Below, piece after piece: positions 3,575 to 52,847 of a stretch of 64,000 bases of DNA (its first letter is position 1; every line of letters begins with the position of its first letter). A program made the translations under genes and the position numbers. Origin of the DNA: Burkholderiales bacterium (GTDB lineage: Bacteria > Pseudomonadota > Gammaproteobacteria > Burkholderiales > Burkholderiaceae_C). The DNA lies in the NCBI GenBank assembly GCA_037143475.1, contig JBAWYQ010000001.1, positions 30,927 to 94,926 of the forward strand. The letters are read 5' to 3'. The notes beneath the pieces were generated by a model. It was not told the origin of the DNA. It did no database searches and saw nothing but the letters and a program-made list of their open reading frames with translations.

Positions 3575-3594
3575 CATCGTCTATTTAGACTAAT
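3575..3594. promoter_or_regulatory. Island dyad site A: CATCGTCTATTTAGACTAAT
   Basis: Intergenic, between the CoA ligase stop (3616) and the DUF1329 start (3436), 139 nt upstream of that start. Near-identical to sites at 49371 and 52757. Confidence 0.55.
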
Positions 3595-3615
3595 GGCGTA
3601 CCCGAGTACGGATAT

Positions 3616-5343
3616 TTATTCCGGCCGCGAAAACTCCCGCTTGAGTATCGACTTGAGCAGCTTGCCTGTGGGATTGCGAGGCAATGGATCGCTGCGCACA
3701 TACACGCGCACAGGCACCTTGTAAGCGGCGAGACGGCCGGCCACAAAGGCCTGCACAGCTGCAGCATCCATATCAAAACCAGGCGCCAATACAACCGCGG
3801 CCACCACCGCCTCACCCGTTATCTCGTCGGCCTGTGAAAATACTGCAGCCTCGATAACTTGAGGATGTTGCAGCAGGCACGATTCCACCTCGGCGGCGGC
3901 AATTTTTTCGCCGCTGCGGTTGATCACATCTTTGATGCGATCAACCACGTGCAGGAAGCCATCGGCATCGAGCAGACCCACATCGCCTGAGCGGAACCAG
4001 GAGTCCTGCAGGGCTTGCGCTGTGGCCTCGGGCTGGCCCCAATAGCCCTCCATCACGGTGACGCCGCGCAGCCAAATTTCACCAGGTTCGCCCGCCGGCA
4101 GATCATGGCCCTGCGGGTCCACAATGCGTATTTCGACGATGGGCGAGGTAGGCCCGGCCGTTGCCGGGCGCAACTGGAACAAAGTGCCGGAAGCGGCCGC
4201 GCCCACGCCATTGGTTTCGGTCAGGCCAAAGCCGATGCCCGAGAGCGAATCGGCGCGCCGCGTCAGCACGTCATCAATCAGGCGCTGCGACAAACCCGCA
4301 CCGCCAAAACCCAGCCCACCCAGCGTGCCGGTGATGGCCGGATCATCGAACGCAACGTGGCGCAACAGCTGCTGAACCATGGCCGGTGCGCCGTTGAATT
4401 GCGTGACCCGCTCGGCCTGTATCAGCGCCAGTGCCGCAACCGGATCCCAGCGGTGCATCAGAACTAATCGGCGGCCGTGGCGCAGCGCAGTGAGCAACTG
4501 CGCGTGCAAACCGCTGACATGGAACAGTGGCACCGCAGACAGCGTGGTGGGCTGCAGGCCACGCGCCATGATGACAGCCAGCGCCTCGGGCGAGGTGATG
4601 GCTGAGATAGCGCCGATGTAATCAATGTTGAACAAGGCCTGGCATACCGCACGCTGATTGGACAACACGCCCTTGGCCTGGCTGGTGGCGCCGGAGGTAA
4701 AGAGAATCAGCGCCGGGTCCTGGGCCGTCAATGCAGGGGGCTGCACTTCCGGTGCTCCGGTTTTGATCAATGCCGGCCATTCATATTTGCCACCCGCCGC
4801 ATCCACCACGATGGCCTGGCATTGCAGTGCTGCCAGGTCAGATGCCACGCGCTGGTGGCGTTCGTGATCGCAGATCAGCCAACCCGGCTTCACGCTTTGC
4901 AGGTTGGCCAGCAACTCGTCGCGCAAGCCAAAGCTGTTCAAGGGCGCCGGCACGGCACCAATCAGGGCCACCGCCGCAAACGCCACGGCCCACTCCGGAC
5001 GGTTACGCATGGCGATCGCCACGCGGTCTCCTGTACACAGACCGTGTTCAGCCTGCAAACGTCCGGCCAGAGCATCTACCGCGGCAAAAAAACGCTCGAA
5101 GGTCCAGCGGTCGTTCTGGTAAACCATGAACTCTTTCGGGCCATGGGACCGCCCCGCATTGATCAGGGCGGGCAGGTTGGTAAATGCGTTTCGATAGGCT
5201 GGTAGCGACTGTTCGCCCCACTGCACTCTTTTCAGCTCAAACGGAGCACCTGGCCCGGTAAGTTGGGCACGGGCTGTGGCAGCCAGCGACAGCAGGGCCT
5301 GCTCTGCGCTTACGCCATTCGTTTGGGAATCGGTAATGGCCAT
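3616..5343 (-). CDS. Acyl-CoA synthetase (AMP-forming; steroid/bile-acid side-chain CoA ligase candidate)
   Basis: 575 aa. AMP-binding motif LILFTSGATSQAKGV, GYWG and SGD blocks, C-terminal PRNPTGKLLK. The ATG overlaps the upstream TAA (TAATG at 5341-5345). Confidence 0.9.
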   Translation of the reverse strand: MAITDSQTNGVSAEQALLSLAATARAQLTGPGAPFELKRVQWGEQSLPAYRNAFTNLPALINAGRSHGPKEFMVYQNDRWTFERFFAAVDALAGRLQAEHGLCTGDRVAIAMRNRPEWAVAFAAVALIGAVPAPLNSFGLRDELLANLQSVKPGWLICDHERHQRVASDLAALQCQAIVVDAAGGKYEWPALIKTGAPEVQPPALTAQDPALILFTSGATSQAKGVLSNQRAVCQALFNIDYIGAISAITSPEALAVIMARGLQPTTLSAVPLFHVSGLHAQLLTALRHGRRLVLMHRWDPVAALALIQAERVTQFNGAPAMVQQLLRHVAFDDPAITGTLGGLGFGGAGLSQRLIDDVLTRRADSLSGIGFGLTETNGVGAAASGTLFQLRPATAGPTSPIVEIRIVDPQGHDLPAGEPGEIWLRGVTVMEGYWGQPEATAQALQDSWFRSGDVGLLDADGFLHVVDRIKDVINRSGEKIAAAEVESCLLQHPQVIEAAVFSQADEITGEAVVAAVVLAPGFDMDAAAVQAFVAGRLAAYKVPVRVYVRSDPLPRNPTGKLLKSILKREFSRPE

Positions 5344-6467
5344 TAAAAACCCCTTAACTGTGCGTAGCGATCGCGGTGGAAGATTCCGTCACCCAGTGTG
5401 TGCTGCAGCATGCGCGCCCGTTTAACAAACAGGCCCAAGTCAAACTCATCGGTAACCCCTATGCCGCCATGCAGTTGCACGGCTTCGTTGAGCACCTTCT
5501 CGCACATATCCGAGGCGCGCGCCTTGGCAATGCTTGCCAGTATGGGCAGGTCGGCAGCATCCGAATCGATAGCTGCCAGCGCCGCACGCACACAACTCTC
5601 CAGCAGCTCCAACTCAACGTACAGGCGTGCCACCCGGTGCTGCAAGGCTTGAAAGCTGCCGATCACCACGTCGAACTGGACACGCTCCTTCAAATACGAC
5701 ACCGTGCGTTCAAACGCTTCGCGAGTCAGACCCATCGCTTCAGCGGCCAGGCAAATGCGTGCACGGTCCAGGGCTGCGTCCAGAGACAACGCCGCATCGT
5801 CAGCGGCGCACAATCGCCTGTCATCTGCCACACGCACACCCTGAAACTGAACGCGCGCACTGTTGCGGCTATCGACCATACGGATGCGCTGCAGCGAGAC
5901 GCCATGGTCTGTCGCGTCGACCACAAACAGGCCCAGGCTTTGGTCCTCCAGACATGCCGTGACGATCAGTTGCTGCGCACCCACTGCGTCCAGCACAAAC
6001 CATTTCTCGCCATCCAGCACCCAGGCATCGCCCTCGCGACGGGCGCGGGTATGCACCGGGCGGGGCGTGTGGCGGCCACTTTCTTCCAGCGCCAGAGCAA
6101 AGCGCTGCGTGCCATCCATCAGGACCGGCAACCAACGCGCCTGTTGTCCGGCGCTGGCACTGCGCAGCAGCAACTCGCCACACAGCACTACCTGGGACAG
6201 CAGCGGCAGGGCCGAAAGGTTACGGCCCATCAACTCAAACACGGTGCCCAGGCCGGCATAGCCCACGCCCAGTCCGCCACGATCCTCGGGGAAAACAGCG
6301 GCAAGCCAGCCCAGCTCAATCGCCTGCTTCCACACCGTCTGCTCATAGCCGAGAGCCACATCGCCATCACGCAGATGGCGCTGTAGTGACACCGGGGCTT
6401 GCCCCTGCAGAAAGTCGCGCGCACTGTCGCGCAACATGCTTTGCTCTTCACTCAATAAGAAAGTCAT
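5343..6467 (-). CDS. Acyl-CoA dehydrogenase, beta-type subunit of a probable heteromeric ACAD
   Basis: 374 aa with an ACAD fold throughout. Lacks the C-terminal (S/T)xEIQxN..A.R.LG.P motif seen in its upstream neighbour. Confidence 0.85.
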   Translation of the reverse strand: MTFLLSEEQSMLRDSARDFLQGQAPVSLQRHLRDGDVALGYEQTVWKQAIELGWLAAVFPEDRGGLGVGYAGLGTVFELMGRNLSALPLLSQVVLCGELLLRSASAGQQARWLPVLMDGTQRFALALEESGRHTPRPVHTRARREGDAWVLDGEKWFVLDAVGAQQLIVTACLEDQSLGLFVVDATDHGVSLQRIRMVDSRNSARVQFQGVRVADDRRLCAADDAALSLDAALDRARICLAAEAMGLTREAFERTVSYLKERVQFDVVIGSFQALQHRVARLYVELELLESCVRAALAAIDSDAADLPILASIAKARASDMCEKVLNEAVQLHGGIGVTDEFDLGLFVKRARMLQHTLGDGIFHRDRYAQLRGF

Positions 6468-6498
6468 CTCGGTCTCTATTCTTTATAAGAAGTGCGCA

Positions 6499-7743
6499 TC
6501 AACCCGGCAAGCCCAGCACGCGCTTGGCAATGATGTTGAGTTGAATTTCGGAGCTGCCGCCGGCAATCGTGTAGCTCTTGGACAGCAGCCAGCTGCGGCA
6601 AATGTCATGCTCGCCGGTGCTAAATTCATCACCCTGCCAGCTTAAAGACCGCTGAGCCAGCACCTGTGTCAGCAGCTCGTACTTGGCAACTTCCTGCTCG
6701 GTCTGCAGCAGCTTCATGATGGAAGCCGGGCCACTGATGTCCTGCCCCGCCATGGCCTGCTCCTTGACCCGCACATGCGTCAGGCCAAAGGCTTGTGCAT
6801 CCATCAGGCAAGCTGCCAGCCGGTCGCGCAGCACGGCGGCCTGCGCCGAGCCCGACCCGGCCTGTTCGGCCTGCAAATAGGGCCGCGCCACGGCCAGCGC
6901 ATCATGCGACGGTGCGCCACCCTCGGTGAACTTGGACATGGCAGCACGCTCGTGCTGCAACAGCTTTTTGCCCACGCCCCAGCCTTCGCCCACGGTACCC
7001 AGCACCTGGCGCACCGGGGTTGTGACATTGTCAAAAAAGACCTGGCAAAAGCCCGACTTGCCACCGATCAGCTCAATCGGTTTGACCGTGATGCCTGGGC
7101 TCTTCATGTCGATCAGCATGAAGCTAATGCCCTGCTGCTTGCGCGCGCTGGCATCGGTGCGCACCAGGGCATACATCCAGTCGGCCTTGTCGGCGTCCGA
7201 GGTCCAGATCTTGGAGCCGTTGATGATGTAGTGGTCACCCGCCACATCCAGTTTGGCCGCGGTTTTCAGGCTGGCCAGGTCGGAGCCGGCGTTGGGTTCC
7301 GAAAATCCCTGGCACCAGCGCCTGCTGCCCTGCATCATCGGAATCAGGTGTTCGCGCTTTTGTGCATCGGTGCCCAGTTCCAGCAGCACCGGCCCCAGCA
7401 TCCAGATGCCCAGGTTGTATTGCGGCTGCCGACAGCCCAGACGGGCCATTTCTTCTTCCACGATGCGGGTCTGGCGTGCATTCAGACCGCCACCGCCAAG
7501 CTCTTTTGGCCAACCCGGCGCAAACCAGCCACGCTCGCGCATGCGCTCAAACCACAGGCGCTGATCTTCATTGGCAAACACCAGCTGTGAGCCGCCCCAC
7601 ACCATCTCAGCAGAGGTTATCGGTGTACGCAGGCTGACCGGGCAATTGGCCTGCAGCCATTGCGCCGTCTCGGCGCGAAAGGTATCGTTATTCGTCAATT
7701 GAAACTCCCATGGGGTGGTGACATCAAACTGAAACGATGACAA
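6499..7743 (-). CDS. Acyl-CoA dehydrogenase, alpha-type subunit
   Basis: 414-aa ORF with C-terminal IAGGSSEIQLNIIAKRVLGLPG. The true start is probably TTG at 7698: GGGAG lies 6 nt upstream, there is a TTGA overlap with the upstream stop, and homology to paralogues begins there. Confidence 0.9.
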   Translation of the reverse strand: MSSFQFDVTTPWEFQLTNNDTFRAETAQWLQANCPVSLRTPITSAEMVWGGSQLVFANEDQRLWFERMRERGWFAPGWPKELGGGGLNARQTRIVEEEMARLGCRQPQYNLGIWMLGPVLLELGTDAQKREHLIPMMQGSRRWCQGFSEPNAGSDLASLKTAAKLDVAGDHYIINGSKIWTSDADKADWMYALVRTDASARKQQGISFMLIDMKSPGITVKPIELIGGKSGFCQVFFDNVTTPVRQVLGTVGEGWGVGKKLLQHERAAMSKFTEGGAPSHDALAVARPYLQAEQAGSGSAQAAVLRDRLAACLMDAQAFGLTHVRVKEQAMAGQDISGPASIMKLLQTEQEVAKYELLTQVLAQRSLSWQGDEFSTGEHDICRSWLLSKSYTIAGGSSEIQLNIIAKRVLGLPG

Positions 7744-8846
7744 CCGTCATCGTCCAGCACCCGGCTAATCAATCCCTCGTAACGCAGCCACGACAAATGG
7801 GCAAGGGTTTCACCCAGGCCCATGAGTTCATCCATAGCATGACGCAACTTGGGGAACTGCACTTGCATCAAATCAAATGCCGTAGCGGATCTGCGCTGAC
7901 CCAGTTCGGCACGCAACAACTCAAATTGTTGCCGATGGTGGGCGTGCAATTCCTCAACCCGCGCGTGTAGACCGCGAAACACACTTTGGTGCGAGGGCAG
8001 CACCAGGGTGTCGGCAGCCAGCTGGTCCAGCCGGTCCAGCGATGCCAGCCACAGCTGCAGCGGATTGGCTTCGGGTTCAATCGGCGAGACCAGCACGTTG
8101 GAGCTGATGCGCGGCAGCAACTGGTCACCGGCAATGAGAATGCGGTCGGTTGCGTTGTACAGGCAGGCATGCTCGGGCGAATGCCCCTCTCCAATCACCA
8201 CCTGCCAGTCGCGCGTGCCGATGGTCAGCACTTCGCCCGAACGCAGGCGCTGGTAACAGGACGGAACCGGCGGCATAAAGGGGTCACGGCGCAGGGCTGC
8301 ATACATCTTCTGCGTCTGTGCCTCGTCCATGCCCGCGCGCTGGTAAAAATCCAGCAGCGTCAATGGCAGCGGGTCGGGCGGCGGCCCCATCAGACCCCGC
8401 AACATGAAGTACTCGCCATAGGTCATGAGCAGCGGAATCTGGTAGCGCTCGCACAGCCAGGCGGCCACACCGGCATGGTCGTAATGGCAGTGGGTGCACA
8501 CCAAGCGCTTGACGGGCAACCCATCCAACCGTGTGGCAACAATCAGCTCCCACAGTTCACGCGTGCGCTCCAGATTCAGCCCGGTGTCCACCAGGGTCCA
8601 GCCATCGTCCTCACGCAGCAGATAGACATTGATATGGTCCAGCGCCATCGGCATGGGCATGCGTGCCCACAAAATTCCGGGAGCCACTTCCACCACCATG
8701 CCATCAGCTGCAGGTGCCTCAAAGGGGTAGTCCAGTGTCACTGAAGCGCGCAAGCGGGACGCTGATGGCGAGCTAGCCACCGAGCGCCTTTGCCATCGCC
8801 TGCGGAGTGATTGGCACATAGCTTCCGGCCGTATCGTCACGCACAA
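7695..8846 (-). CDS. MBL-fold metallo-hydrolase (function unknown)
   Basis: HxHxDH motif (CTHCHYDHAG) and later GHSPEH. The start is uncertain (candidates TTG 8846, ATG 8819, GTG 8780, GTG 8741). The upstream ligase ends at 8773 and homology to the paralogue at 53590-54852 begins at TLDYPF (~8738). Confidence 0.85.
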   Translation of the reverse strand: MCVTIRPEAMCQSLRRRWQRRSVASSPSASRLRASVTLDYPFEAPAADGMVVEVAPGILWARMPMPMALDHINVYLLREDDGWTLVDTGLNLERTRELWELIVATRLDGLPVKRLVCTHCHYDHAGVAAWLCERYQIPLLMTYGEYFMLRGLMGPPPDPLPLTLLDFYQRAGMDEAQTQKMYAALRRDPFMPPVPSCYQRLRSGEVLTIGTRDWQVVIGEGHSPEHACLYNATDRILIAGDQLLPRISSNVLVSPIEPEANPLQLWLASLDRLDQLAADTLVLPSHQSVFRGLHARVEELHAHHRQQFELLRAELGQRRSATAFDLMQVQFPKLRHAMDELMGLGETLAHLSWLRYEGLISRVLDDDGCHRFSLMSPPHGSFN

Positions 8847-10581: not shown

Positions 10582-10615
10582 GGGGTCTCCCTCATTCTTT
10601 TTTTGTTGCGATGCC

Positions 10616-11797: not shown

Positions 11798-11816
11798 GGC
11801 TTCTCGTTGTTAGGGT

Positions 11817-12995: not shown

Positions 12996-13019
12996 GGGTT
13001 TAAAACTCCTGGCGCTGCA

Positions 13020-14568: not shown

Positions 14569-14577
14569 CGCTCCTCC

Positions 14578-15546: not shown

Positions 15547-15581
15547 GACTTGCTCCTTGAAAATTGGGGGACTGCATGGGA

Positions 15582-16361: not shown

Positions 16362-16394
16362 GGCATTGAATTTACGGACACCGCCCTTTACCCG

Positions 16395-16414
16395 ATACGT
16401 CCGAAAGGACGATG
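16395..16414. promoter_or_regulatory. Island dyad site B: ATACGTCCGAAAGGACGATG
   Basis: In the divergent gap between the SDR (start 16361) and the enoyl-CoA hydratase (start 16471). Confidence 0.5.
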
Positions 16415-16470
16415 TAGCCAAAGTCTGTGCGACCGAAGATGGACCTGCCCCACCAATCCCAGAGCCCACC

Positions 16471-17283
16471 ATGTCCGACCCCACCTCTGCGCCCGGCGCC
16501 GCCGCGGCAACCGCACCCGAATTGCTGCTGGAGCGCCCCAGCGAGGGCGTGGCCCTGCTGCGCATGAACCGGCCCGACGCCGCCAATGCGCTGAGCCTGA
16601 CGCTGCAGGCCAGCCTGGCCCAGGCCTTTACCGCCCTGTCAGCCGATGACAGCGTGCGCGTGATCGTGCTGACCGGCGGCGAACAGGTGTTTGCCGCCGG
16701 TGGCGACATAAAGAGTATGGACGGCTGCGGCGCCATCGAGATCATGAAACGCCACACCGAGCGTGTGTGGGCACCAATCGAGCGCTGCCCCAAGCCGGTG
16801 ATAGCCGCCGTGTGCGGCTTTGCCTATGGCGGCGGCGCCGAGTTGGCCATGCACTGCGACATCATCCTGGCCGGTGAAGGGGCCAGCTTCTCGCAGCCCG
16901 AGATCCGCATCGGCATCATGCCGGGCATCGGTGGCACGCAGCGCCTGCTGCGCGCGGTGGGCAAGTTCAACGCCATGCGCATACTGCTGACCGGTCAGCC
17001 GGTGAGCGCGCAGGAGGCCCGCCTGATGGGCCTGGTCAGCCAGGTGTTGCCGGACGCCGAACTACTGCCGGCCGCGCTGAAGATGGCCCGAACAATTGCC
17101 GCCATGCCACCGCTGGCGGCGCAACAGATCAAGGAAGTGGTGCTGGCCGGTGCCGACGCCTCACTGGAAGCCGCCCTGATGCTGGAACGCAAGGCCAACC
17201 AGCTGCTGTTTGCCACGCATGACCAGAAGGAGGGCATGCAGGCCTTTATCGAGAAACGCAAGCCGGTGTTTGTGGGGCGCTAA
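16471..17283 (+). CDS. Enoyl-CoA hydratase/isomerase (crotonase)
   Basis: Crotonase fold (LLRMNRPDAANAL, FAAGGDIK, CGFAYGGGAELAMHCD). ATG at 16471 chosen over the longer ORF start at 16351, which overlaps the divergent SDR. Confidence 0.85.
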   Translation: MSDPTSAPGAAAATAPELLLERPSEGVALLRMNRPDAANALSLTLQASLAQAFTALSADDSVRVIVLTGGEQVFAAGGDIKSMDGCGAIEIMKRHTERVWAPIERCPKPVIAAVCGFAYGGGAELAMHCDIILAGEGASFSQPEIRIGIMPGIGGTQRLLRAVGKFNAMRILLTGQPVSAQEARLMGLVSQVLPDAELLPAALKMARTIAAMPPLAAQQIKEVVLAGADASLEAALMLERKANQLLFATHDQKEGMQAFIEKRKPVFVGR

Positions 17284-19027: not shown

Positions 19028-19029
19028 AC

Positions 19030-19838: not shown

Positions 19839-20771
<933 letters not shown>

Positions 20772-21521: not shown

Positions 21522-21579
21522 GGGATTCTTCAATAAACAATGGACTTGGGGCAACTATCGGGCAAGCGCCGGGCGCTTG

Positions 21580-21599
21580 CAGCGTCCAAACGGACGATG
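21580..21599. promoter_or_regulatory. Island dyad site C: CAGCGTCCAAACGGACGATG
   Basis: Centred in the divergent gap, 59 nt from both the etfB start (21521) and the FadH-like start (21658). Confidence 0.55.
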
Positions 21600-21657
21600 A
21601 CTGCACGCGCAGGAGCCACACAATCAGCTGAGCCCCCCTCCACCGTAGCAGCGCACC

Positions 21658-26039: not shown

Positions 26040-26119
26040 CTGGACTCCTGAATATTCGGTTGGCATGAGGGACGAAATCGTACCCATGTCATGACATTAG
26101 CAGAGCCCACCGGGGTGCA

Positions 26120-26139
26120 CTTCGTCCAAAGGGACGATG
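26120..26139. promoter_or_regulatory. Island dyad site D: CTTCGTCCAAAGGGACGATG
   Basis: In the divergent gap between the aldehyde dehydrogenase (start 26039) and the SDR (start 26171). Confidence 0.55.
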
Positions 26140-26170
26140 GCATCGGCCTTGCGGCATTGCACCATGGCGC

Positions 26171-27282: not shown

Positions 27283-27302
27283 TCTAGTCCAAACAGGGGA
27301 TG
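27283..27302. promoter_or_regulatory. Island dyad site E (weaker): TCTAGTCCAAACAGGGGATG
   Basis: 61 nt upstream of the Rieske oxygenase ATG. Left arm is the TAGTC variant and the right arm is degenerate. Confidence 0.35.
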
Positions 27303-27362
27303 TTTGAAGTGCCGCGCTCCTTGAATATCCATGTCATAAATCACTTTCAAACTGGAGCACAC

Positions 27363-30548: not shown

Positions 30549-30603
30549 GGTGGGCCAGTCAATTGAATAAGTGATCCATTTTTGGCCGGTACCGGGTTGG
30601 CTA

Positions 30604-30623
30604 CATCGTCCGCGCAGACGATG
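30604..30623. promoter_or_regulatory. Island dyad site F: CATCGTCCGCGCAGACGATG (perfect 7-bp arms)
   Basis: In the divergent gap, 56 nt from the MFS start (30548) and 63 nt from the hydrolase start (30686). Confidence 0.6.
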
Positions 30624-30685
30624 CCAATCTGCATACAGCACGTAAAGTGTCACCACCCCTGCACTTTCCAAATGGAGAATCCCGA

Positions 30686-33457: not shown

Positions 33458-34648
33458 TTATTCGCGTGTGCCCAGCCATGCCACGCTGTTCAGGAAGATG
33501 CGCACCAGCTCGGTCTGGCGGCGCACACCGGTCTTGGAAAAGATGGAGCGCAGATGCGCACGCGCCGTGTTGCGCTTGATGCCCAGCAGGTCTGACGCTT
33601 CGTCCAGCGATAGCCCGTTGGCCAACTCAATGGCCAGCGCGGTCTCGGCCGGAGTCAGCTGAAACAGTTGCTGCGTCAGCCGGATGGGCGGATGGGCCTG
33701 ACCTTCGGCATCGCGCACAAACACCGCCACGCTGGGTCGCTGCTTGCCTTCGGTCCATTGATCGGAGGCAATGCTCTGCACCACCACACCCCAGCTGTGC
33801 TGGCCCGAGGGGCGGCTGATGGATAGCGCATCGGTGAGCGACATCTTGGCGGCCTTGGGGTGAATCAAAGCGTCGCGTATGAGGCGCTGCAGGACACGGT
33901 TTTCGTTGGGGTAACTGGCATCAAGCTGGTCACCAACGATACGCAGTCCATCGGACATTTCCAGTATGGCGGTAGCTGCCGGATTGCACTCAATCACATT
34001 GCGATCCTGGTCCAGCACAATCACGCCCACCATAAGTTGCGCCATGGCATGGCTGTATAGCGAGATGACCTTGCGGTCCTGGTGCGTCGAGAGATGCAGA
34101 TTCAGCGCACGTTTGATATGGGGCAGCAAGCGCCGGCCCAACGCCAGGTCCTGCGGTGAAAACGGCGGAGCGCTTTCGGGGCGGGTGATACGAAAGCCGT
34201 AGACCGCACCATTGCTGACCTCGATATCGGCGGCCATCACGTGAAACACGCCTAGCGGCTGGCACCAGTCCTTGTAGTACGATGAGGCGCGCCAATCAGC
34301 CTCGGTCAGCACATCCGAATTCGTGACCAGCCGGTCAGACGGCATGCCCGTGAAGGGACTCATCATGATGTAGGGATTGCCCAGGGCGATGCTGCGGTGC
34401 TCCTGGGAATTGGAAACAATCATGCCGATGTCATCGGCAGAGCCCGGCCGCACGATCAGTGAAGCGTAATTGCCCGCCAGTTCCCGCCGGATCAAGTCCA
34501 GGCAATTGGTCCAGCCTGCCGGGTCCAGGGCCGCGTCATAGACCGTGTCCAACATGCGGCTGAACTGATCAAGCGACAGGCTTGCTCCCACCGGAGTTGC
34601 GCTGGCAGTGTCCGGTGAACTCGTGGCGTCTTTGGGCGTTTTAGTCAT
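33458..34648 (-). CDS. tesR: LuxR-family transcriptional regulator (PAS-like sensor + GerE-type HTH), TesR/TeiR-like
   Basis: 396 aa with C-terminal LTPAETALAIELANGLSLDEASDLLGIKRNTARAHLRSIFSKTGVRRQTEL. Its size and position at the end of a tesB-led operon match the C. testosteroni regulator as I recall it. Confidence 0.75.
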   Translation of the reverse strand: MTKTPKDATSSPDTASATPVGASLSLDQFSRMLDTVYDAALDPAGWTNCLDLIRRELAGNYASLIVRPGSADDIGMIVSNSQEHRSIALGNPYIMMSPFTGMPSDRLVTNSDVLTEADWRASSYYKDWCQPLGVFHVMAADIEVSNGAVYGFRITRPESAPPFSPQDLALGRRLLPHIKRALNLHLSTHQDRKVISLYSHAMAQLMVGVIVLDQDRNVIECNPAATAILEMSDGLRIVGDQLDASYPNENRVLQRLIRDALIHPKAAKMSLTDALSISRPSGQHSWGVVVQSIASDQWTEGKQRPSVAVFVRDAEGQAHPPIRLTQQLFQLTPAETALAIELANGLSLDEASDLLGIKRNTARAHLRSIFSKTGVRRQTELVRIFLNSVAWLGTRE

Positions 34649-37188: not shown

Positions 37189-37244
37189 CAGCGTCGTCTT
37201 CAGTCGTTTTGTTACAGCAATGATGGCGCGCGTCGCAACCCGGC

Positions 37245-37264
37245 ACATCGTCTGCATGGACGAT
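37245..37264. promoter_or_regulatory. Island dyad site G: CATCGTCTGCATGGACGATG (perfect 7-bp arms)
   Basis: In the 122-nt gap inside the long minus-strand operon, 57 nt upstream of the SDR start (37188). Confidence 0.6.
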
Positions 37265-37310
37265 GGACGGCCGGGCGCGCGGGCTCATCGCGCGGAATCT
37301 GGCGCGCCGC

Positions 37311-39622: not shown

Positions 39623-39635
39623 GCAGCGCTCCCGC

Positions 39636-40511: not shown

Positions 40512-40516
40512 GGTGT

Positions 40517-41683
40517 TCAGAGTCTTTCAATAATGGTGACGTTGGCCTGGCCGCCGCCTTCGCACATGGTCTGCAGGCCATAGCGCCCGCCGGTGCGTTC
40601 GAGTTCATGCAACAAGGTGGTCATCAGCTTGACGCCCGATGCACCTAACGGATGGCCCAGCGCGATGGCGCCTCCATTCACATTGGTGCGCGCATGGGCG
40701 TAGCCGGTTTCTTTGAGCCAGGCCATGACCACCGAGGCAAAGGCTTCGTTGATTTCCACCAGGTCGATGTCATCCAGCTTGAAGCCTGATTTTTTAAGGG
40801 CACGGGCCGTGGCAGGAATGGGCGCGGTCAGATGCCAGATGGGATCGTCAGCCAGCACGCTCAGGTGCGCAATGCGGGCGCGCGGCGTCAGCCCGTAGCG
40901 CTTGAGCGCTGCCTCCGACACCACCAGCACCGCGGCCGCGGCATCGCAGGTGGAACTGGACACCGCAGCGGTAATGCCCGGGTAGGCCGGGTCGACCGGT
41001 GCCAGTGTGGCCATTTTTTCGAGGGTGCTGGCACGTGCGGTTTCGTCCATGCGGAAGACGGTGCCATCTGGCAGCGTGTAGGGAACCACCTCGCGATCGA
41101 AACGCCCTTCGGCGATGGCACGCAGCGCGCGGTCGTGGCTTTCCTTGGCAAAGACTTCCATGCTTTCACGCGTGGCGCCCCAATGGTCGGCAATGCGTTG
41201 GGCGGCATAAAACTGGTTGACCGGTGCGTTGCCAAAACGGGCCTGCCAGCCCCGGCTTTCGGCAAAGGGGGTGCTGAAGCCCAGCGGTTGCCCGGCCAGC
41301 ATGGCCGAGGAGATCGGGATCGCGCTCATGGTCTGCACACCGCCGGCCAGCACTACATCCTGCGTGCCGCTCATCACCGCCTGCGCGGCAAAGTGAACCG
41401 CCTGCTGCGACGAGCCGCATTGCCGGTCAATGGTGGTGCCCGGCACATTCAGTGGCATGCCCGCAGCCAGCCAGGCGGTGCGGGCGATGTCGCCGGCCAG
41501 CGCGCCAATGGTGTCCACGCAACCAAAGATCACGTCGTCGTATTCAGCGGCGGGAATCTGGTTGCGCTCGACGATGGCGCGAATCACATGGGCGCCCAGG
41601 TCGGCGCCATGCACCGCAGCCAGCGAACCCTTGCGCTTGCCGGTGGGCGAACGCAGGGCGTCGACGATATAAGCTTCTGCCAT
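40517..41683 (-). CDS. Acetyl-CoA C-acyltransferase (thiolase, FadA6/ScdF-like)
   Basis: ATG 41683 ([19 protein letters not shown]). [28 protein letters not shown]. Confidence 0.9.
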
Positions 41684-41702
41684 AAGAGATACGAGTCCAG
41701 GG

Positions 41703-42782: not shown

Positions 42783-42794
42783 GAATACCTCCGC

Positions 42795-43949: not shown

Positions 43950-43962
43950 CTTGTGCTCCCGT

Positions 43963-44718: not shown

Positions 44719-44730
44719 AGTTGGATTTCT

Positions 44731-46715: not shown

Positions 46716-46726
46716 GGTGGGTTCGC

Positions 46727-47491
46727 CTAGCCTAGTGCCGAGGCACGCAGATTGTGGGGATCAAGCCGGGCCAACAATTCCATTTGCTCGGCGGTGGGTG
46801 CGGGGGTTTCGGGTATGTTCTCGGGCAGGTAAAGTGGGAAACCCGTTGCCTCCTGCACCTGTGCTGCAGTAACGCCGGGATGCAAAGACACCAGGCGCAC
46901 CTGGTGCGCAGGGCCGCCAAAGTCCAATACGCACAGATTGGTGAAGATGAAACGGATGTCAATTTCGTCCAAACTCCAACCACGCGCCAGGCGCGCCGGG
47001 TTGTAGCCGACTGAAGCCACCATATCCACCTCACCCGCCACCAGAACCTTGGTGCTGTGGTTGGGCACAAAGAATGAATTGGCGTGGTTGATAGAGTTAC
47101 CCGGAAAGCCACGCACGCCCAACATCATCGACTTGGGGCGGTCGTAGTCCGCACCGACCATCGAAATATTGGCTTGCCCGAAGCGGTCAATTTGCGTAGG
47201 GCCCACCATGGCATGGCGTTTGCCACCCCAGACGTTGTCGAAAATCCGCGAGAAGCCCATCCAGCTTTCGCGCTGGGGTGCATAGCCTTTGCGGGGACCT
47301 ACTGGAACCGGCTCGCTCACCAGCCAGGCCTCGGAATCGGTCATCATCAGGTCGGTATTGATGGACACCATGCACAACGATGCGGCCAGCCGAGAGACCA
47401 CACCGATGCCGGTGGCCAATACTTCACCGTCGTCTTTCCAGGCCTGTGCCGCTGCACAAATGATTCGGTCTACCAGAGATATTTCAGTCAT
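46727..47491 (-). CDS. CoA-transferase family I subunit B (IpdB/ScdL2-like)
   Basis: ATG 47491 (MTEISLVDRIICAAAQAW). The ORF-track extension to 47608 overlaps the subunit A gene. Confidence 0.85.
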   Translation of the reverse strand: MTEISLVDRIICAAAQAWKDDGEVLATGIGVVSRLAASLCMVSINTDLMMTDSEAWLVSEPVPVGPRKGYAPQRESWMGFSRIFDNVWGGKRHAMVGPTQIDRFGQANISMVGADYDRPKSMMLGVRGFPGNSINHANSFFVPNHSTKVLVAGEVDMVASVGYNPARLARGWSLDEIDIRFIFTNLCVLDFGGPAHQVRLVSLHPGVTAAQVQEATGFPLYLPENIPETPAPTAEQMELLARLDPHNLRASALG

Positions 47492-47502
47492 ACCGTACTC
47501 GC

Positions 47503-48381
47503 TCAAAACACCGGCAGTGGCAACTTGCGCACCGCATCCACACCACCCACCCGCTCCAGATATTGCTCTTCTCCGCAATGCACATAGCGCTCGGCGTATT
47601 TCTGCCACCCGTCGGCCTCTTTGGCACTGGCAACATATTCCTTGAAGTGCTGGACATCAAAGCCATACAGTGGTGCGCAAGAACTGGGATGTGCGCCACA
47701 GGGCATGTGCACCACGCCGGTGGTCTCGGAGCGTTCCCAAAAAACGTAGCGCGCCTCATCACCTTGCGCGAAGTAGCTGCTGTCCACCAACTCATCACAG
47801 CTCACAAAGGTGTTTCTGGAGGCACGCGCAAACAGGTCGTCCATGTACATGTCCGGGCCCTTGATCTGACATACGCCCCGCGTGTCTGCTCGGTCCACAT
47901 GCAGCAAGGCCACATCCAGCGGCAGGGCCGGCATGGCGACCCATTCTTTTCCGTCGTAGGGCGAGGCCGTCAGGGCGATGGACGGATTGCGCTTGAGCAC
48001 ATCGGTGCCCAGACCCACGCGCGTGGGAATGTAGGGCACGCGCATGCCTGCAGCCTTGAGCCCCAGCATGAACAAGCCCTCGTCGATTTCCATCACTTCA
48101 ATGGAACCGCTTTGGCGCGCCATGCGGAAGTAGGGCTCCAGAGGAATGAAGTCGAGAGACACGAAGGCAAAGACCAGTTTCTTGACCTTGCCGGCGGCGC
48201 ACAGCATGCCTACGTCCGCACCACCATAGGAGACCACGGTCAAATCCTTCAGGGGTGAGCGCAGGATCTCGCGCACCAAAGCCATGGGCTTGCGCCGGGG
48301 GCCCCAGCCACCTATGCCTACGGTCATTCCGTCTTTCATTTGCGCGACCACATCGGCCGCGGACATTTGTTTATTGGACAT
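47503..48381 (-). CDS. CoA-transferase family I subunit A (IpdA/ScdL1-like)
   Basis: 292 aa; DGMTVGIGGWG opening is typical of glutaconate-type CoA-transferase A subunits. Confidence 0.85.
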   Translation of the reverse strand: MSNKQMSAADVVAQMKDGMTVGIGGWGPRRKPMALVREILRSPLKDLTVVSYGGADVGMLCAAGKVKKLVFAFVSLDFIPLEPYFRMARQSGSIEVMEIDEGLFMLGLKAAGMRVPYIPTRVGLGTDVLKRNPSIALTASPYDGKEWVAMPALPLDVALLHVDRADTRGVCQIKGPDMYMDDLFARASRNTFVSCDELVDSSYFAQGDEARYVFWERSETTGVVHMPCGAHPSSCAPLYGFDVQHFKEYVASAKEADGWQKYAERYVHCGEEQYLERVGGVDAVRKLPLPVF

Positions 48382-48386
48382 GGAAA

Positions 48387-49301
48387 TCAGGCCTTCTCTT
48401 CCAGCAAGCCCTTGCTCGAAACGCTGAAGTCATGCCCCCACAGACTGACGCGTGTGAATTCGTGGGCAATGTGCTGCTCCCAGTCGACGACGACACCGCC
48501 ATAGCCGAACTCGATATCGAAGTTCGACGGTGAGCGCATGTAGAACGACGTAACTTTGTCGTTGGTGTGCTGGCCCAGCGTGGCAGTTTGCTGCACCTTG
48601 TTGGCAAACATGCGGTCCATTGCACGGCCCACTTCGGGCATGTTTTCGACCTCGACCATGATGTGTACGCAGCCGCTTTCCACCGGAAAGCCCGCCAGAG
48701 CCAGGCTGTGGTGGCGACCGTTGTTGCAATGGAAGAAGTGGATGGGAAGCGTAGGACCCTGATCGCCTGCGGGCTTGAAGTTGAACAAGTCGGCCATGCC
48801 GAAACCCATCACATCCTTGAAGAAGGCGCAGGTCTTTTCAAACTCAGGTGCCGGCAACACGGTGTGACCCATGCCGATGTTGTCGGTGACAAAACGCGAC
48901 ACGCCCGCCGGTGAGGCAAAGTGCACAAAATCGGATTGAAAGCCCCAGACCAACTCATGGCAGTTTCCCGACGGGTCCTTGAAACTTGCCACCTGCTGGG
49001 CGCAGCGGTGCTTACACAGGGCCGCATCGCCCAGCGTGTATTCCACCTGGGCTGCACGCAGAACTGCCAGTGCGGCTTCAAATGCCGGTTGCCCGGCCAC
49101 TTCCCATCCGGATGCAACATAGCCGTCGCGCGCACCAGCTTGCACTGCTAAGCGGAACTGCCGCTCATCCATGCGCACATACAAACCACCTTCGGCTGCG
49201 GGCGCAGTCATCATGCCCAGCACACTCTCAGCGAAACTTTTCCATCGCGCCACGTCTGTGCTCTCTGCAATTACGTAAGCCAGTCCACGAATGTCCATCA
49301 T
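48387..49301 (-). CDS. tesB: Type I extradiol (meta-cleavage) dioxygenase, TesB/HsaC-like
   Basis: ATG 49301 with AAGGAA RBS. Two VOC modules with His/His/Glu iron-ligand context (MGHTVL, HHSLAL, FDIEFG). Leads an IpdAB/EchA20 operon as tesB does in C. testosteroni. Confidence 0.85.
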   Translation of the reverse strand: MMDIRGLAYVIAESTDVARWKSFAESVLGMMTAPAAEGGLYVRMDERQFRLAVQAGARDGYVASGWEVAGQPAFEAALAVLRAAQVEYTLGDAALCKHRCAQQVASFKDPSGNCHELVWGFQSDFVHFASPAGVSRFVTDNIGMGHTVLPAPEFEKTCAFFKDVMGFGMADLFNFKPAGDQGPTLPIHFFHCNNGRHHSLALAGFPVESGCVHIMVEVENMPEVGRAMDRMFANKVQQTATLGQHTNDKVTSFYMRSPSNFDIEFGYGGVVVDWEQHIAHEFTRVSLWGHDFSVSSKGLLEEKA

Positions 49302-49370
49302 GTTATGTTCCTTGTGCCCCGTCGGATCAGGGCCTATGCGTTTGATTGTGTGAAGACAAGGTCGGTGCAA

Positions 49371-49390
49371 CATCGTCCATTGAGACTAAC
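49371..49390. promoter_or_regulatory. Island dyad site H: CATCGTCCATTGAGACTAAC
   Basis: 70 nt upstream of the tesB ATG, in the 164-nt gap after the OYE gene. Confidence 0.55.
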
Positions 49391-49465
49391 GCGCACGCTT
49401 CTTTTGCATCCCTTTGGCGGATGCAACCCGACCCCCCCTCTGCAGCGGGCCAAGTTGCACCGGGA

Positions 49466-50524
49466 TTACGCTGCGGGGTAGTCGGTATAGCCCGCGGCTC
49501 CGGGCGTGTAGAGCGTCTTTCGGTCAAAGCGCGCTAGCGGCTTGCCGCTGCGCAAACGTCGCACCAGATCGGGGTTGCCAATGAAGTGGCGTGCGAAGGA
49601 AAGCGCTGTGTCGGGATGCTCCTGAAGGCTACCCTCTGCATTCTCTGGACCGAAACCGTCATTGAGGATCAGGCGTTCACCAAAGTGAGCACGGGCCATA
49701 GCAAAGGCATCGATTTCTGTCAGCGGCGAGCGCATTACATGCAGGTAAGCCAAATTCAGAGGGGCCGCCTGACGCAATAGTTCGGCGTGGGTGGCGGCAG
49801 AGTCCTCATCGCTGGTGTCGTTGTAGGTGTTGCCCGGATTCAGACGCAGACCGACGCGACCACTACCGATCATCAGCGCCATGGCCTGCAGGCACTCGAT
49901 GGCAAAGCGCGCACGGTGCGCCGCCGCACCGCCATAGCAGTCGCTGCGCAGGTTGGTGCCAGAGCAGAGGAACTGCATCGGCAAGTAGCCGCTGGTGCCA
50001 TGTAGTTCAACGCCGTCAAAACCGGCCTCGCGCGCATGCAGGGCCGCCTGTCCGTATTCATGCACTACGGCACGGACCTCATCCGTACTCAGGGCCTGCG
50101 GCAGGTCATAGGCTTGCATGCCGGCGCTGTCGGTAACCACTTCACCGGCCGCCTGCAGGGCGCTGGGGGCCACCGTTGCCACCCCCGCGGGTTTAATGTG
50201 ATGGCTGCCGATGCGCCCGCCATGCATGATTTGTAGCACGATCAAGCCGCCCCGTGCATGAACTGCATCGGTGACCTGTTTCCACCCGGCAATGTGCGCA
50301 CTCGTCGCGATGCCGGGCTGGCGGCAATAGGACTGACCGGCGGCACTGGGCCAAGTGCCTTCAGCCACAATCAGTCCGGCTTCGGCACGCTGGCCATAGT
50401 GTTCAGCCATCAGCGCGCCGGGCACGCCATCGGCGCCCGCACGGTTACGTGTCATGGGTGCCATGACGATGCGGTTGGCCAGTTGCAACTCACCCAGCAC
50501 AAGGGGTTCAAACAGACGGCTCAT
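49466..50524 (-). CDS. Old Yellow Enzyme-family alkene reductase (NemA/OPR-like)
   Basis: 352 aa; NRIVMAPMTRNRA, QIMHGGR, GFDGVELHGTSGYLPMQFL. Confidence 0.9.
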   Translation of the reverse strand: MSRLFEPLVLGELQLANRIVMAPMTRNRAGADGVPGALMAEHYGQRAEAGLIVAEGTWPSAAGQSYCRQPGIATSAHIAGWKQVTDAVHARGGLIVLQIMHGGRIGSHHIKPAGVATVAPSALQAAGEVVTDSAGMQAYDLPQALSTDEVRAVVHEYGQAALHAREAGFDGVELHGTSGYLPMQFLCSGTNLRSDCYGGAAAHRARFAIECLQAMALMIGSGRVGLRLNPGNTYNDTSDEDSAATHAELLRQAAPLNLAYLHVMRSPLTEIDAFAMARAHFGERLILNDGFGPENAEGSLQEHPDTALSFARHFIGNPDLVRRLRSGKPLARFDRKTLYTPGAAGYTDYPAA

Positions 50525-50525
50525 A

Positions 50526-51176
50526 TCAACGCACCCTCATCTTGGGCGCCGGCGTACCGCGCCGCATGGTTTTGAGAAACTGCTCCAGCGGTGCGGGTGC
50601 GGCCACTTCGGGCAGCGTGTTCTTGTCGGGCCGCTGGGCCCAGAACGCATTCCAGCTGGGGAACAGATCGTGAAAGCTGCCGGTGTAGGGCTCGCGCCCG
50701 GGCCAGCGCATCTTCATGTCGCCGATGGGCGGTTTGTTCAGGTCGCTGGCGTACCAGTAGCAGGGCAGGCGGCGGCGGAAAAACCACTGGCCGTCCATGC
50801 GCTCGTAATCGTCCCAGTAGAGCATTTGCATGGTGACCCACTCGGGGCCGCACTCGTGCTCGTTCTTGGAATAGACCATGCCGGTGGCATGGTCGGCATC
50901 GGCAAACTCGATGATGTGCTGGCCGATATGGTGCGAGGTGCCGGTGAACTGCTCGCGCAGGGTCTGGTCCTGCCAGGCCTTGAAATGGGCGCGGCCTACT
51001 TTCTCCTTGCCGACACGGATGTCGGGTGCGAACAGGTTCACATGGGCATCCATGTCGCGCATGTCCAGCGACAAGGCGTATTTGCCGGCCAGCTGGCGTA
51101 TGGCGTCCAGCGCTTCGAGCCGGTCTATGCGCTGCTCCAGGCTGGACGGCCAGTCGCTGCCGGGCATATCGCTCAC
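50526..51176 (-). CDS. SnoaL-like / NTF2-fold protein
   Basis: 216 aa, GTG start overlapping the upstream TGA. RIDRLEALDAIRQLAGKYALSLD is a typical SnoaL_4 opening. About 70 aa of C-terminal extension has no recognisable family. Confidence 0.65.
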   Translation of the reverse strand: MSDMPGSDWPSSLEQRIDRLEALDAIRQLAGKYALSLDMRDMDAHVNLFAPDIRVGKEKVGRAHFKAWQDQTLREQFTGTSHHIGQHIIEFADADHATGMVYSKNEHECGPEWVTMQMLYWDDYERMDGQWFFRRRLPCYWYASDLNKPPIGDMKMRWPGREPYTGSFHDLFPSWNAFWAQRPDKNTLPEVAAPAPLEQFLKTMRRGTPAPKMRVR

Positions 51177-51943
51177 AGTGCGGTCACCAGCACGGCCGAG
51201 CGTCCGCCATCCACCGGCAGGGTAGCGCCCGTGATGTAGGAGGCTTCGTCGCTGGCCAGAAACAGGATGGCATTGGCCAGCTCCAGCGGCTGACCGACAC
51301 GGCCCATGGGGATCAGCTTTTCGGTGGCCTTGCGGCTGGCCTCATCGGCCAGCATGCCGGCGGTGGCCGGGGTTTCGACCACCGCGGGAATGACCACATT
51401 CACCCGCACACCGGCGGGTGCGCCCTCGGCCGCAGCAGCGCGCGAGAAGTTGATGACGGCCGCCTTGGCGGCCGAGTAGCCGGCCATCCAGGCGGTGCCG
51501 AGCACACCGCAAATGGAGGACAGGTTGATGATCGAGCCGCCCCCGTTCTTCATCAGCCGCAGGGCTGTACGGGTACCCCAGAAAGTGCCGTCCACCGAGG
51601 TCGTGAAATTGCTGTGCCAGTCGGCCGTGCTGGTGGCTTCGATCGCGCCCCAGCTGTAGGCCATGGCGTTGTTGACCAGGATATCGAGCCGGCCGTGTCG
51701 CTGCGCTGCGGCCTCCAGTGCCGCGATGAAGCCAGCTTCATCGCTGACGTCGGCCTGTACGGCCTCGGCCTTGCCGCCCGCGGCGGCAATCTGCGCCACC
51801 ACCGCGTCCAGCGGCTCGCGACGGCGACCGCAGATGACGACGATGGCGCCTTCTTCCGCAAAGCGGATGGCGGTGGCGGCACCGATGCCGGTGCCAGCAC
51901 CGGTAATAAAGGCTACTTTGCCTTGGAGTCGACCTGTTGTCAT
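51173..51943 (-). CDS. SDR-family oxidoreductase
   Basis: ATG 51943 with GAGGAGG RBS (MTTGRLQGKVAFITGAGTGIGAA). YSAAKAA. Confidence 0.85.
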   Translation of the reverse strand: MTTGRLQGKVAFITGAGTGIGAATAIRFAEEGAIVVICGRRREPLDAVVAQIAAAGGKAEAVQADVSDEAGFIAALEAAAQRHGRLDILVNNAMAYSWGAIEATSTADWHSNFTTSVDGTFWGTRTALRLMKNGGGSIINLSSICGVLGTAWMAGYSAAKAAVINFSRAAAAEGAPAGVRVNVVIPAVVETPATAGMLADEASRKATEKLIPMGRVGQPLELANAILFLASDEASYITGATLPVDGGRSAVLVTAL

Positions 51944-51953
51944 GGCGACCTCC

Positions 51954-52688
51954 TCAGATAAAGGCGCTGCCGCCATTGACCGCCAGGTTCTGGCCGGTGA
52001 CAAAGCCGCTGTCATCGCTGGCCAGGAACAGCGCCACACTGGCGATGTCTTCCGGCTCGGCCATGCGGCCCATGGGCACGCCCTTGATGATGGCATCGGT
52101 CCATTCCTGGGGAATGCTTTGCATCATGGGTGTGTTGGTCGGGCCGGGTACCAGGGTATTGACGCGAATGCCCTGCGACGCCAGTTCCTTGGCCATGCTG
52201 CGAGTCAGACCCATCAAAGCCGCCTTGGAGGCTACATAGTGAGCCGGCCCATCGCCCGACACGGCGGCGGTGCTGGCAAGGTTGATCACCACGCCGCTGT
52301 TGCCAACTTTTTGCATAGCTCGCACAGCCTGGCGGGCGCAATAGAAGGCACCATTCAAATTGACGCCGATGACGCGCGCCCAAGTCTCGTCGCTGATGTC
52401 GGCAAAGGCGTCGACCGAGCCGATGCCCGCGTTGTTCACCAGGATGTCGATGCAGCCAAACAGACCGACGACTTCGTCACACAGGGCCGCGACGGCGCTG
52501 CTGTCTGCCACATTGAGCGCACGGGCAATGCTGGGCCCGGACAGACCTTCCAGCGATTGCTGTGCGCCCTCCAGATTCAGGTCGAGTGCCACAACGGTCG
52601 CACCCTCTTCAGCGAAGCGGCGCGCAATTGCACGCCCCATGCCCTGACCAGCGCCGGTTACCAGCGCCACTTTGTCCTTGAGTCTCAT
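51954..52688 (-). CDS. SDR-family oxidoreductase
   Basis: ATG 52688 with AGGAG RBS (MRLKDKVALVTGAGQGMGRA). YVASKAA. Confidence 0.85.
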   Translation of the reverse strand: MRLKDKVALVTGAGQGMGRAIARRFAEEGATVVALDLNLEGAQQSLEGLSGPSIARALNVADSSAVAALCDEVVGLFGCIDILVNNAGIGSVDAFADISDETWARVIGVNLNGAFYCARQAVRAMQKVGNSGVVINLASTAAVSGDGPAHYVASKAALMGLTRSMAKELASQGIRVNTLVPGPTNTPMMQSIPQEWTDAIIKGVPMGRMAEPEDIASVALFLASDDSGFVTGQNLAVNGGSAFI

Positions 52689-52756
52689 CTTTTGCTCCTG
52701 TGCAAGGCCGCCACTCGACCTGTTGCCAACAGCGTAGGGCGTTCCCGTATTGCCGC

Positions 52757-52776
52757 CATCGTCCAATGAGACTAAA
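52757..52776. promoter_or_regulatory. Island dyad site I: CATCGTCCAATGAGACTAAA
   Basis: 69 nt upstream of the SDR ATG (52688), at the outer edge of the island. Confidence 0.55.
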
Positions 52777-52827
52777 AATATTTCGGAGGCGCTCTGCCAC
52801 CTATGAGTGTCGAGTCAAGGGTTGACA

Positions 52828-52847
52828 CCTAGTCCAAGGAGACGAAT
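52828..52847. promoter_or_regulatory. Island dyad site J (weaker): CCTAGTCCAAGGAGACGAAT
   Basis: 71 bp beyond site I and 140 nt upstream of the same ATG. TAGTC-type left arm, GACGAAT right arm. Confidence 0.4.

Follow-up and report, generated by a model that had tools for sequence, protein, structure and literature searches.

A conserved 20-bp dyad in the promoters of a steroid and bile-acid catabolic island, a candidate operator of the LuxR-type regulator TesR/TeiR

The lux box, with the consensus ACCTGTAGGATCGTACAGGT, the tra box, a single copy of which can serve divergent operons, and the DosR box, GGGAC-N4-GTCCC, are known bacterial operators. TesR/TeiR, a regulator of steroid degradation, has been known genetically since 2004. 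It is a positive regulator needed for induction of the tes and scd gene clusters (PMC6895838, PMC6678751), and a steABCD-tesB-scdL1L2NKYM1M2FEC1C2-GDJ-tesR cluster has been described for Comamonas testosteroni TA441 (PMC13101464). According to a 2021 review, how Proteobacteria regulate steroid and bile-acid degradation is 'largely unknown' (PMC8399759). Here we analyze a stretch of 64,000 nucleotides from a Burkholderiales bacterium (assembly GCA_037143475.1, contig JBAWYQ010000001.1, positions 30,927 to 94,926), hereafter the window, most of which is an island of steroid and bile-acid catabolism genes. A 20-bp dyad, CATCGTC-N6-GACGATG, recurs in the promoter gaps of this island, and a preliminary description had proposed it as a regulon operator and a plausible TesR/TeiR box. 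We find that the box is almost certainly a genuine, conserved cis-regulatory element. Judging from sequence comparisons, we put at roughly 0.7 the probability that it is a 'TesR box', the operator of a dedicated steroid/bile-acid catabolic regulon bound by TesR/TeiR.

All ten 20-mers of the preliminary description are present in the window as written, the sole coordinate error being a site placed at 37245 that starts at 37246. They fill nine promoter gaps rather than ten, as the sites at 52757 and 52828 lie in one gap, while each of the four divergent gaps (16.4, 21.6, 26.1 and 30.6 kb) does hold one box. With up to three mismatches allowed, CATCGTC-N6-GACGATG has 15 matches in the window against 3.4 ± 1.8 in shuffled sequence, and no shuffle reached 15. 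A symmetrised position weight matrix (PWM) built from the eight strong window sites, with a match threshold of at least 15, gives nine matches in the window compared with 0.08 expected from 200 dinucleotide shuffles. The eight training sites score 20–27 and the untrained copy at 52828 scores 16.4. The next best scores, 12.1 at 41041 and 11.4 at 50807, come from inside coding sequence and were treated as chance. All nine matches fall within the ~2.2 kb of island intergenic gaps, with gene starts corrected by domains and ribosome-binding sites. Every gap of at least 100 nt ahead of a gene start has a site except three, which appear to be operon-internal. Convergent gaps and all gaps of the replicon backbone have no site (best PWM score 5.5), in keeping with the earlier statement that the backbone is clean of the motif. 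An exact-dyad count over the whole window (arms of 4–6 nt, spacers of 0–14), an underpowered test, ranked CGTC-N6-GACG seventh among 4-mer dyads. The consensus of the box is approximately (C/T)(A/T)T(C/A)GTC(C/T)-N4-(G/A)GAC(G/T)A(T/A)(G/N). The sites are given below with the -10-like hexamer and the start codon assigned to each promoter.

3575-3594, minus strand: box (reverse complement ATTAGTCTAAATAGACGATG), PWM 25.6, facing DUF1329-DUF1302; -10 AACAAT at 3549-3554, likely start ATG 3436.
16395-16414, divergent: box, PWM 20.2; leftward to the SDR15 side-chain operon (-10 TAAATT at 16369-16374, ATG 16361) and rightward to an enoyl-CoA hydratase gene (-10 GAAGAT at 16435-16440, ATG 16471).
21580-21599, divergent: box, PWM 25.1, which many loci keep immediately upstream of the orthologue; leftward to ETF-beta/alpha (-10 GATAGT at 21554-21559, ATG 21521) and rightward to the 707-aa FMN reductase (-10 CACAAT at 21619-21624, ATG 21658).
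26120-26139, divergent: box, PWM 27.4; leftward to aldehyde dehydrogenase (ALDH)-SDR (-10 TAATGT at 26094-26099, ATG 26039) and rightward to an SDR gene, SDR26 (-10 CACCAT at 26160-26165, ATG 26171).
27283-27302, plus strand: degenerate box TCTAGTCCAAACAGGGGATG, PWM 6.2, facing kshA; -10 GAATAT at 27323-27328, at the canonical offset, likely start ATG 27363.
30604-30623, divergent: box with perfect arms, PWM 24.7; leftward to MFS transporter-EthD (-10 AAAAAT at 30578-30583, ATG 30548) and rightward to a beta-lactamase-fold gene (-10 TAAAGT at 30643-30648, ATG 30686).
37246-37265, minus strand: box with perfect arms, PWM 27.3, facing scdG-scdD-scdJ-tesR; -10 CATCAT at 37220-37225, start ATG 37188.
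49371-49390, minus strand: box (reverse complement GTTAGTCTCAATGGACGATG), PWM 22.5, facing the tesB-scdL1...scdC2 operon; -10 CACAAT at 49345-49350, start ATG 49301.
52757-52776, minus strand: box (reverse complement TTTAGTCTCATTGGACGATG), PWM 23.3, facing steA-B-C-D; -10 TACGCT at 52731-52736, start ATG 52688.
52828-52847, plus strand: box, PWM 16.4, outside the training set, at the edge of the island and directed rightward; -10 CATGCT at 52868-52873.

For comparison we used 80 independent loci around orthologues of the 707-aa reductase (1.41 Mb) from beta- and gamma-proteobacteria, none of which contributed to the PWM: Rhodoferax, Limnohabitans, Polaromonas, Comamonas (including C. testosteroni ATCC 11996), Collimonas, Pandoraea, Zoogloea, Thauera, Aromatoleum, Azoarcus, Marinobacterium and Halomonas. 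At the same threshold, 187 matches occur in these loci where shuffles give 1.0, and at least one is present in 77 of the 80. The box is kept at the orthologous promoters of both genes that flank the 16395 site, SDR15 (20/20) and enoyl-CoA hydratase (17/17), and at those of ALDH (23/24), tesB (12/12), steA (25/25), the MFS transporter MFS2 (20/23), ETF-beta (11/14) and scdG (6/8, including a C. testosteroni-like scaffold, L084). Orthologues of kshA have a site in 12/19 cases, mostly of the degenerate type seen at 27283. Six operon-internal genes, tested in the same way, gave no box in 73 tests (0/17, 0/22, 0/8, 0/9, 0/5 and 0/12). Conservation in Comamonas steroid clusters had been suggested as a check, and the box was found both in C. 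testosteroni ATCC 11996 and in the C. testosteroni-like scaffold. The proposal of a regulon operator is supported: PWM matches are absent from coding and shuffled sequence, and the element is conserved at orthologous promoters.

Beyond these loci, the matrix has matches at the orthologous promoters of Shewanella and of one plasmid each from Vibrio and Sphingobium. When the tesB promoters of Rhodoferax, Thauera, Zoogloea, Aromatoleum, Marinobacterium and Vibrio were aligned together with the oxidoreductase-bphC promoter of Sphingobium, these alpha-, beta- and gamma-proteobacterial sequences had nothing in common but the 20-bp box and, 20 nt downstream, a hexamer. In Shewanella (49% G+C), the 20-mer that heads the tesR operon is identical to the tesB site of the window, and the box persists in hosts of 45–66% G+C.

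Each site was oriented both ways and the orientations were grouped by the arm next to the flank; those with a GACGATG arm amount to 192 non-redundant cases. Past a GACGATG arm the flank has A at +22 (73%), A at +25 (55%) and T at +26 (71%), which is a -10-like hexamer, nAnnAT, at +21 to +26, or 20 nt past the arm. The A(+22)/T(+26) pair occurs at the exact offset in 134 of the 192 cases and at -1 in 35 more (169/192 together), while other offsets have 0–18. The same -10 signal follows the remaining GACG-type arms (the second arms of divergent promoters) and is not found past GACTA(A/G/C) arms. In asymmetric boxes it is the GACGATG arm that is directed at the gene. The region equivalent to a -35 reads aTG(T/C)C(G) and matches two to three positions of TTGACA. 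Given this fixed spacing past the GACGATG arm, the box would span about -52 to -33 with its centre near -42.5, a position that depends on the -10-like hexamers. The terminal TG is probably T2-G3 of a partial -35, given a 17-bp spacer, with the rest of the -35 hexamer non-consensus. A fixed distance combined with a poor -35 and a weak -10 points to a class II activator-dependent promoter, and we rate a class II activator site as quite likely. An extracytoplasmic-function sigma factor promoter was considered and ruled out, as the gap of 24 nt between GGAC and the -10 is too far.

Several copies of the box carry an ATG at their ends that could be mistaken for a start codon. The starts that an ORF (open reading frame) finder gives to the DUF1329, kshA and tesB ORFs (3577, 27300 and 49373) coincide with the terminal ATG of the motif. 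In these ORFs, however, the Pfam domains start ~30 or more residues in, and in-frame ATGs with a Shine-Dalgarno-like sequence lie 60–138 nt downstream of the motif ATG. The domain positions and the downstream Shine-Dalgarno-preceded ATGs rule out the CAT/ATG ends as start codons; the terminal ATG belongs to the cis element and the real starts are elsewhere. Such 'first starts' on a motif ATG are also seen at 30606 and 37248, and automated annotation would probably over-extend these genes by 21–47 codons. At 21.6 kb the box had been placed exactly 59 nt from both start codons; the symmetry is real, but the distance is 58 nt on each side if ETF-beta starts at ATG 21521.

Some starts lie unusually close to their promoters. 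Those of SDR15 (16361) and SDR26 (26171) are 33 and 31 nt past the box, 5–7 nt after the -10 hexamer, which suggests leaderless or near-leaderless mRNAs; 33 nt is also the median box-to-start distance over the 20/20 SDR15 orthologues. The starts at 16471, 21658 and 30548 have the context ...(C)CACCATG without a Shine-Dalgarno sequence. After the 52828 box come ~700 nt of low G+C that lack a convincing ORF, and a metallo-beta-lactamase-fold gene starts from 53590. This box is probably a partner promoter orphaned by the junction between island and backbone. Paired divergent boxes 36–71 bp apart occur in Thauera, Parazoarcus and Marinobacterium, and the partner box in Thauera drives an MFS transporter.

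The candidate for the protein that binds the box is encoded in the island itself:

33458-34648, minus strand: tesR/teiR orthologue, with a predicted tandem PAS/GAF-like sensor and a C-terminal LuxR-type helix-turn-helix (HTH).

This gene had been named as the only regulator gene of the island, and Pfam scans of the island's called ORFs likewise found it as the sole regulator. Its product is 64% identical to C. testosteroni TeiR (Q6URL0) over 99% coverage, and the scdG-scdD-scdJ-tesR synteny of the window is that described for TA441 (PMC13101464). The Pfam matches to PAS are weak, and the acyl-homoserine lactone (AHL) autoinducer-binding domain PF03472 gave no match in the window TesR even at E ≤ 0.05; PF00196 (GerE) is precomputed for most TesR orthologues. 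A moderate-confidence AlphaFold model of TesR (mean predicted local distance difference test score, pLDDT, 69.6; predicted template-modelling score, pTM, 0.45) has two PAS/GAF-like domains, a long linking helix and a four-helix HTH, with the four C-terminal helices over residues 321–391. Fold matches of the model are tandem-GAF proteins and the ligand-sensing LuxR-type regulators VqmA, VqsR, RhlR and TraR, while sequence matches in the PDB are the DNA-binding domains of VraR and LiaR (the best, E = 0.03–0.07), VpsT and ComA. We found no solved structure of the TesR family in the PDB.

Over 12 orthologues sharing 38–67% identity, the recognition segment I(K/R)RNTARAHLR(S/A)IFSKTG is invariant. 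This parallels the invariance of the box, and we count it in favor of TesR as the binder. Family members at 38–47% identity occur in Marinobacterium, Thauera, Aromatoleum, Halomonas, Shewanella, Amphritea and Endozoicomonas, and in Thauera and Marinobacterium the tesR-family genes share contigs with box-bearing clusters. Judged by sequence, tesR-like genes reach beyond C. testosteroni, contrary to a report that confined them to that species (PMC6895838). In Thauera, Shewanella, Marinobacterium and plasmid pVa1 of Vibrio alfacsensis, tesR follows the ETF genes in a box-headed operon, and in the window and the C. testosteroni-like scaffold a box is followed by scdG-D-J and then tesR. A TesR-family gene accompanies the box in the window, Thauera L081, Shewanella L082, Marinobacterium L083, L084, Vibrio L087 and Sphingobium L089. 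On the Sphingobium plasmid the TesR-like gene is 35% identical with the helix kept (KRNTARAHLRSVF), and boxes stand upstream of kshA and of the oxidoreductase-bphC operon.

A more distant paralogue is found in Aromatoleum toluclasticum (L074, 5017-6261), where a TesR-like gene of 31% identity adjoins DUF1329/DUF1302 genes and has a different recognition helix, AETAARNYSKKIYAKM. Because its recognition helix differs, this paralogue may recognize another box.

The mechanism we propose is as follows. A dimer of the island-encoded TesR/TeiR would bind the box through its LuxR-type HTH, the half-sites T(C/A)GTCC lying 10 bp apart, centre to centre, on one helix face. The box would take the place of a proper -35 element, with the promoter-proximal TG of GACGATG giving T2-G3 of the residual -35, and the bound dimer would recruit sigma-70 RNA polymerase by class II activation. 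Where both arms are of the GACG type, the fully palindromic box would serve two divergent promoters simultaneously, while unidirectional promoters would have a distal arm of the GACTAA type. Because tesR lies in box-headed operons, the circuit would be positively autoregulated. Both activation rather than repression and TesR as the binder are what we infer from the sequences. We also favor, somewhat less firmly, a broader reading in which a single steroid/bile-acid regulon extends over alpha-, beta- and gamma-proteobacteria (Comamonadaceae, Thauera/Aromatoleum/Zoogloea, Marinobacterium, Halomonas, Shewanella, Vibrio and Sphingobium), with TesR as the direct binder and a dimer at -42.5 driving two divergent promoters.

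Several observations weigh against TesR as a direct activator at the box. The GerE match of the window TesR is marginal, at 23.1 bits against a gathering threshold of 23.5 (E = 5.6e-5). Transcription starts are placed solely by -10-like hexamers. tesR is always inside steroid clusters, so its co-occurrence with the box is partly expected whatever binds, and the TesR-less negative control is a single case (n = 1), a region of Novosphingobium pNL2 with tesB- and kshA-like genes and no box. Göhler et al. (2008), as summarized in PMC6678751 and PMC8399759, described TeiR as a polar membrane-associated kinase acting by phosphorylation, a model that leaves room for a different DNA-binding protein. 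Some other, unlinked factor, of the CRP/FNR type or another HTH dimer, could then occupy the class II site, with TesR as an upstream sensor or kinase. A 5-N6-5 dyad near -42 is also CRP/FNR class II geometry, and only 11 of the 80 loci have a tesR gene within ±10 kb of the FMN-reductase orthologue, which leaves most loci without one in that range. We nevertheless consider this explanation unlikely. The box is unlike TGTGA-N6-TCACA or TTGAT-N4-ATCAA, and Pfam scans found no CRP-family gene in the island. The clusters examined have no second regulator family in common: TesR stands alone in the window, while the extra regulators differ by cluster (TetR in Thauera L081, IclR in Sphingobium L089 and a LysR at the edge of Marinobacterium L083), and no other regulators were found in unannotated ORFs of the Thauera, Zoogloea, Marinobacterium and Halomonas loci. 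The recognition helix of TesR is invariant wherever the box is invariant, and the box follows steroid clusters through hosts of widely differing G+C, as fits a regulator encoded in the cluster.

A dyad overlapping the -35 can also block RNA polymerase, and actinobacterial steroid regulons are under repressor control (PMC6678751). A KstR-style operator, bound by a negatively acting TesR or by another repressor, is in our view still more doubtful than an unlinked activator: the -10 spacing is constant within 1 bp in 169 of the 192 cases, the poor -35 (aTGnCn) and weak -10 are hallmarks of activator-dependent promoters, the genetics of C. testosteroni require TesR/TeiR for induction (PMC6895838), and the island has no TetR, IclR or GntR gene by Pfam scans, which found no TetR domain in any island ORF. 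That the motif has no regulatory role at all, and arose by chance or composition, as an artefact of start codons and ribosome-binding sites or as a small mobile repeat, has a negligible probability, even though three copies end exactly on ORF-finder starts. The shuffles gave 0.08 and 1.0 matches where 9 and 187 were observed, the domain positions disagree with a start-codon origin, as do the starts of four genes, which lie 68–138 nt downstream after a Shine-Dalgarno-like sequence, and conservation is confined to the 20 bp and the -10, in genomes from 45% to 66% G+C. A mobile repeat was ruled out, since the flanks of the box are unconserved.

The island (485-52850, ~62% G+C) was identified as one of steroid and bile-acid catabolism by Pfam scans of all long ORFs. 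Its products include DUF1302/DUF1329 outer-membrane proteins, CoA ligases, many acyl-CoA dehydrogenases, ChsH2/Ltp2-type side-chain enzymes, ETF alpha/beta, the 707-aa FMN/FAD reductase, KshA and MFS transporters, and the block from 33.4 to 52.8 kb is colinear with the TA441 cluster (PMC13101464). The DUF1329/DUF1302 pair (2051-3436 and 485-2026) has its own box in the window and adjoins tesR in Marinobacterium (L083, 12193-15230); these outer-membrane proteins probably belong to the steroid regulon, where uptake may be their role. At ~52.9 kb the island gives way to a replicon module of ~51% G+C (52900-64000), so that, in this Rhodoferax-like (Comamonadaceae) sequence, a complete steroid/bile-acid catabolic island adjoins a plasmid-type replication and partition module:

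56068-57420, minus strand: Rep3 initiator.
57958-59226, plus strand: ParA.
59229-60305, plus strand: ParB.

The closest relative of the island is Rhodoferax lacus (94% amino-acid identity in the 707-aa reductase). The window sequence has no entry in PLSDB, and megablast of the window returned only the ETF genes, at 72–78% identity, with no match to the backbone. A 2026 comparative preprint reported only one plasmid-borne steroid cluster. In tblastn searches of PLSDB, tesR and tesB were found together on plasmids or chromids of Vibrio alfacsensis (pVa1), Caballeronia, Burkholderia arboris and Sphingobium (Tom plasmids), and a tesR homologue was found in Cupriavidus necator.

The openly searchable literature, which leaves out subscription papers on TeiR, yielded no account of an operator for TesR/TeiR. 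A literature search for the motif sequence returned unrelated primers only, and the 2026 TA441 genome preprint makes no mention of promoters. A box at a fixed promoter position, kept across three proteobacterial classes, gives a ready design for electrophoretic mobility shift, reporter and biosensor work, and it allows a direct check on whether TesR activates by binding DNA or acts only as a kinase. It corrects start-codon annotation at several genes. It also lets the regulon be predicted from genome and metagenome sequences, with transporters and the DUF1329/DUF1302 uptake genes marked as members. If our reading is right, TesR would be a one-component, steroid-responsive PAS/GAF-HTH activator, instead of or besides a membrane kinase, and its regulon, including the uptake genes (DUF1329/DUF1302 and MFS transporters), could be read from any genome or metagenome sequence.

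How does the box compare with known operators? In register it differs from CRP/FNR sites (GTC-N6-GAC as opposed to GTG-N8-CAC), and the arms differ as well. Regulators of the NarL/DosR/VraR/LiaR type share with TesR a GerE-type four-helix DNA-binding domain, and their dyads of ~16–20 bp have half-sites about one helical turn apart. TesR, however, has no receiver domain, and the half-site polarity of the DosR box is opposite to that of GTCC-N4-GGAC. VqmA (PDB 6ide and 7dwm) and VqsR are, as the TesR model would be, one-component ligand-sensing PAS/GAF-HTH regulators, and both bind a palindrome. Their identity to TesR is 13–16% with low query-normalised TM-scores, and TesR has two sensor-like domains and a long helix.

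The lux and tra boxes are the closest in architecture. Both they and the proposed TesR box are 18- to 20-bp dyads for a dimer with a C-terminal LuxR-type HTH, if TesR is indeed the binder, and both would lie near -42.5, overlapping the -35, in class II promoters. The preliminary description had called the dyad classic lux-box geometry, which holds for its 20-bp length, its position near -42.5 and its fixed spacing to the -10. It does not extend to the sequence, as T(C/A)GTCC-N4-GGAC(G/T)A bears no resemblance to the lux-box consensus. TesR also differs from AHL-type LuxR proteins in lacking PF03472 and in its predicted tandem PAS/GAF-like sensors, for which the signal would be a steroid or steroid metabolite. 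The TesR box may be seen as working like a lux/tra box yet, given its different sequence and the lack of an AHL-binding domain in TesR, falling outside the lux/tra family. The operators of KstR and KstR2 are similar in another respect: a single conserved palindrome marks the promoters of a steroid-catabolic regulon and makes that regulon predictable from sequence. KstR and KstR2 are TetR repressors with other motifs at variable positions, whereas the TesR box stands at a fixed position suited to an activator. By analogy, the TesR box would fill the role of the actinobacterial KstR operators, but for an activator.

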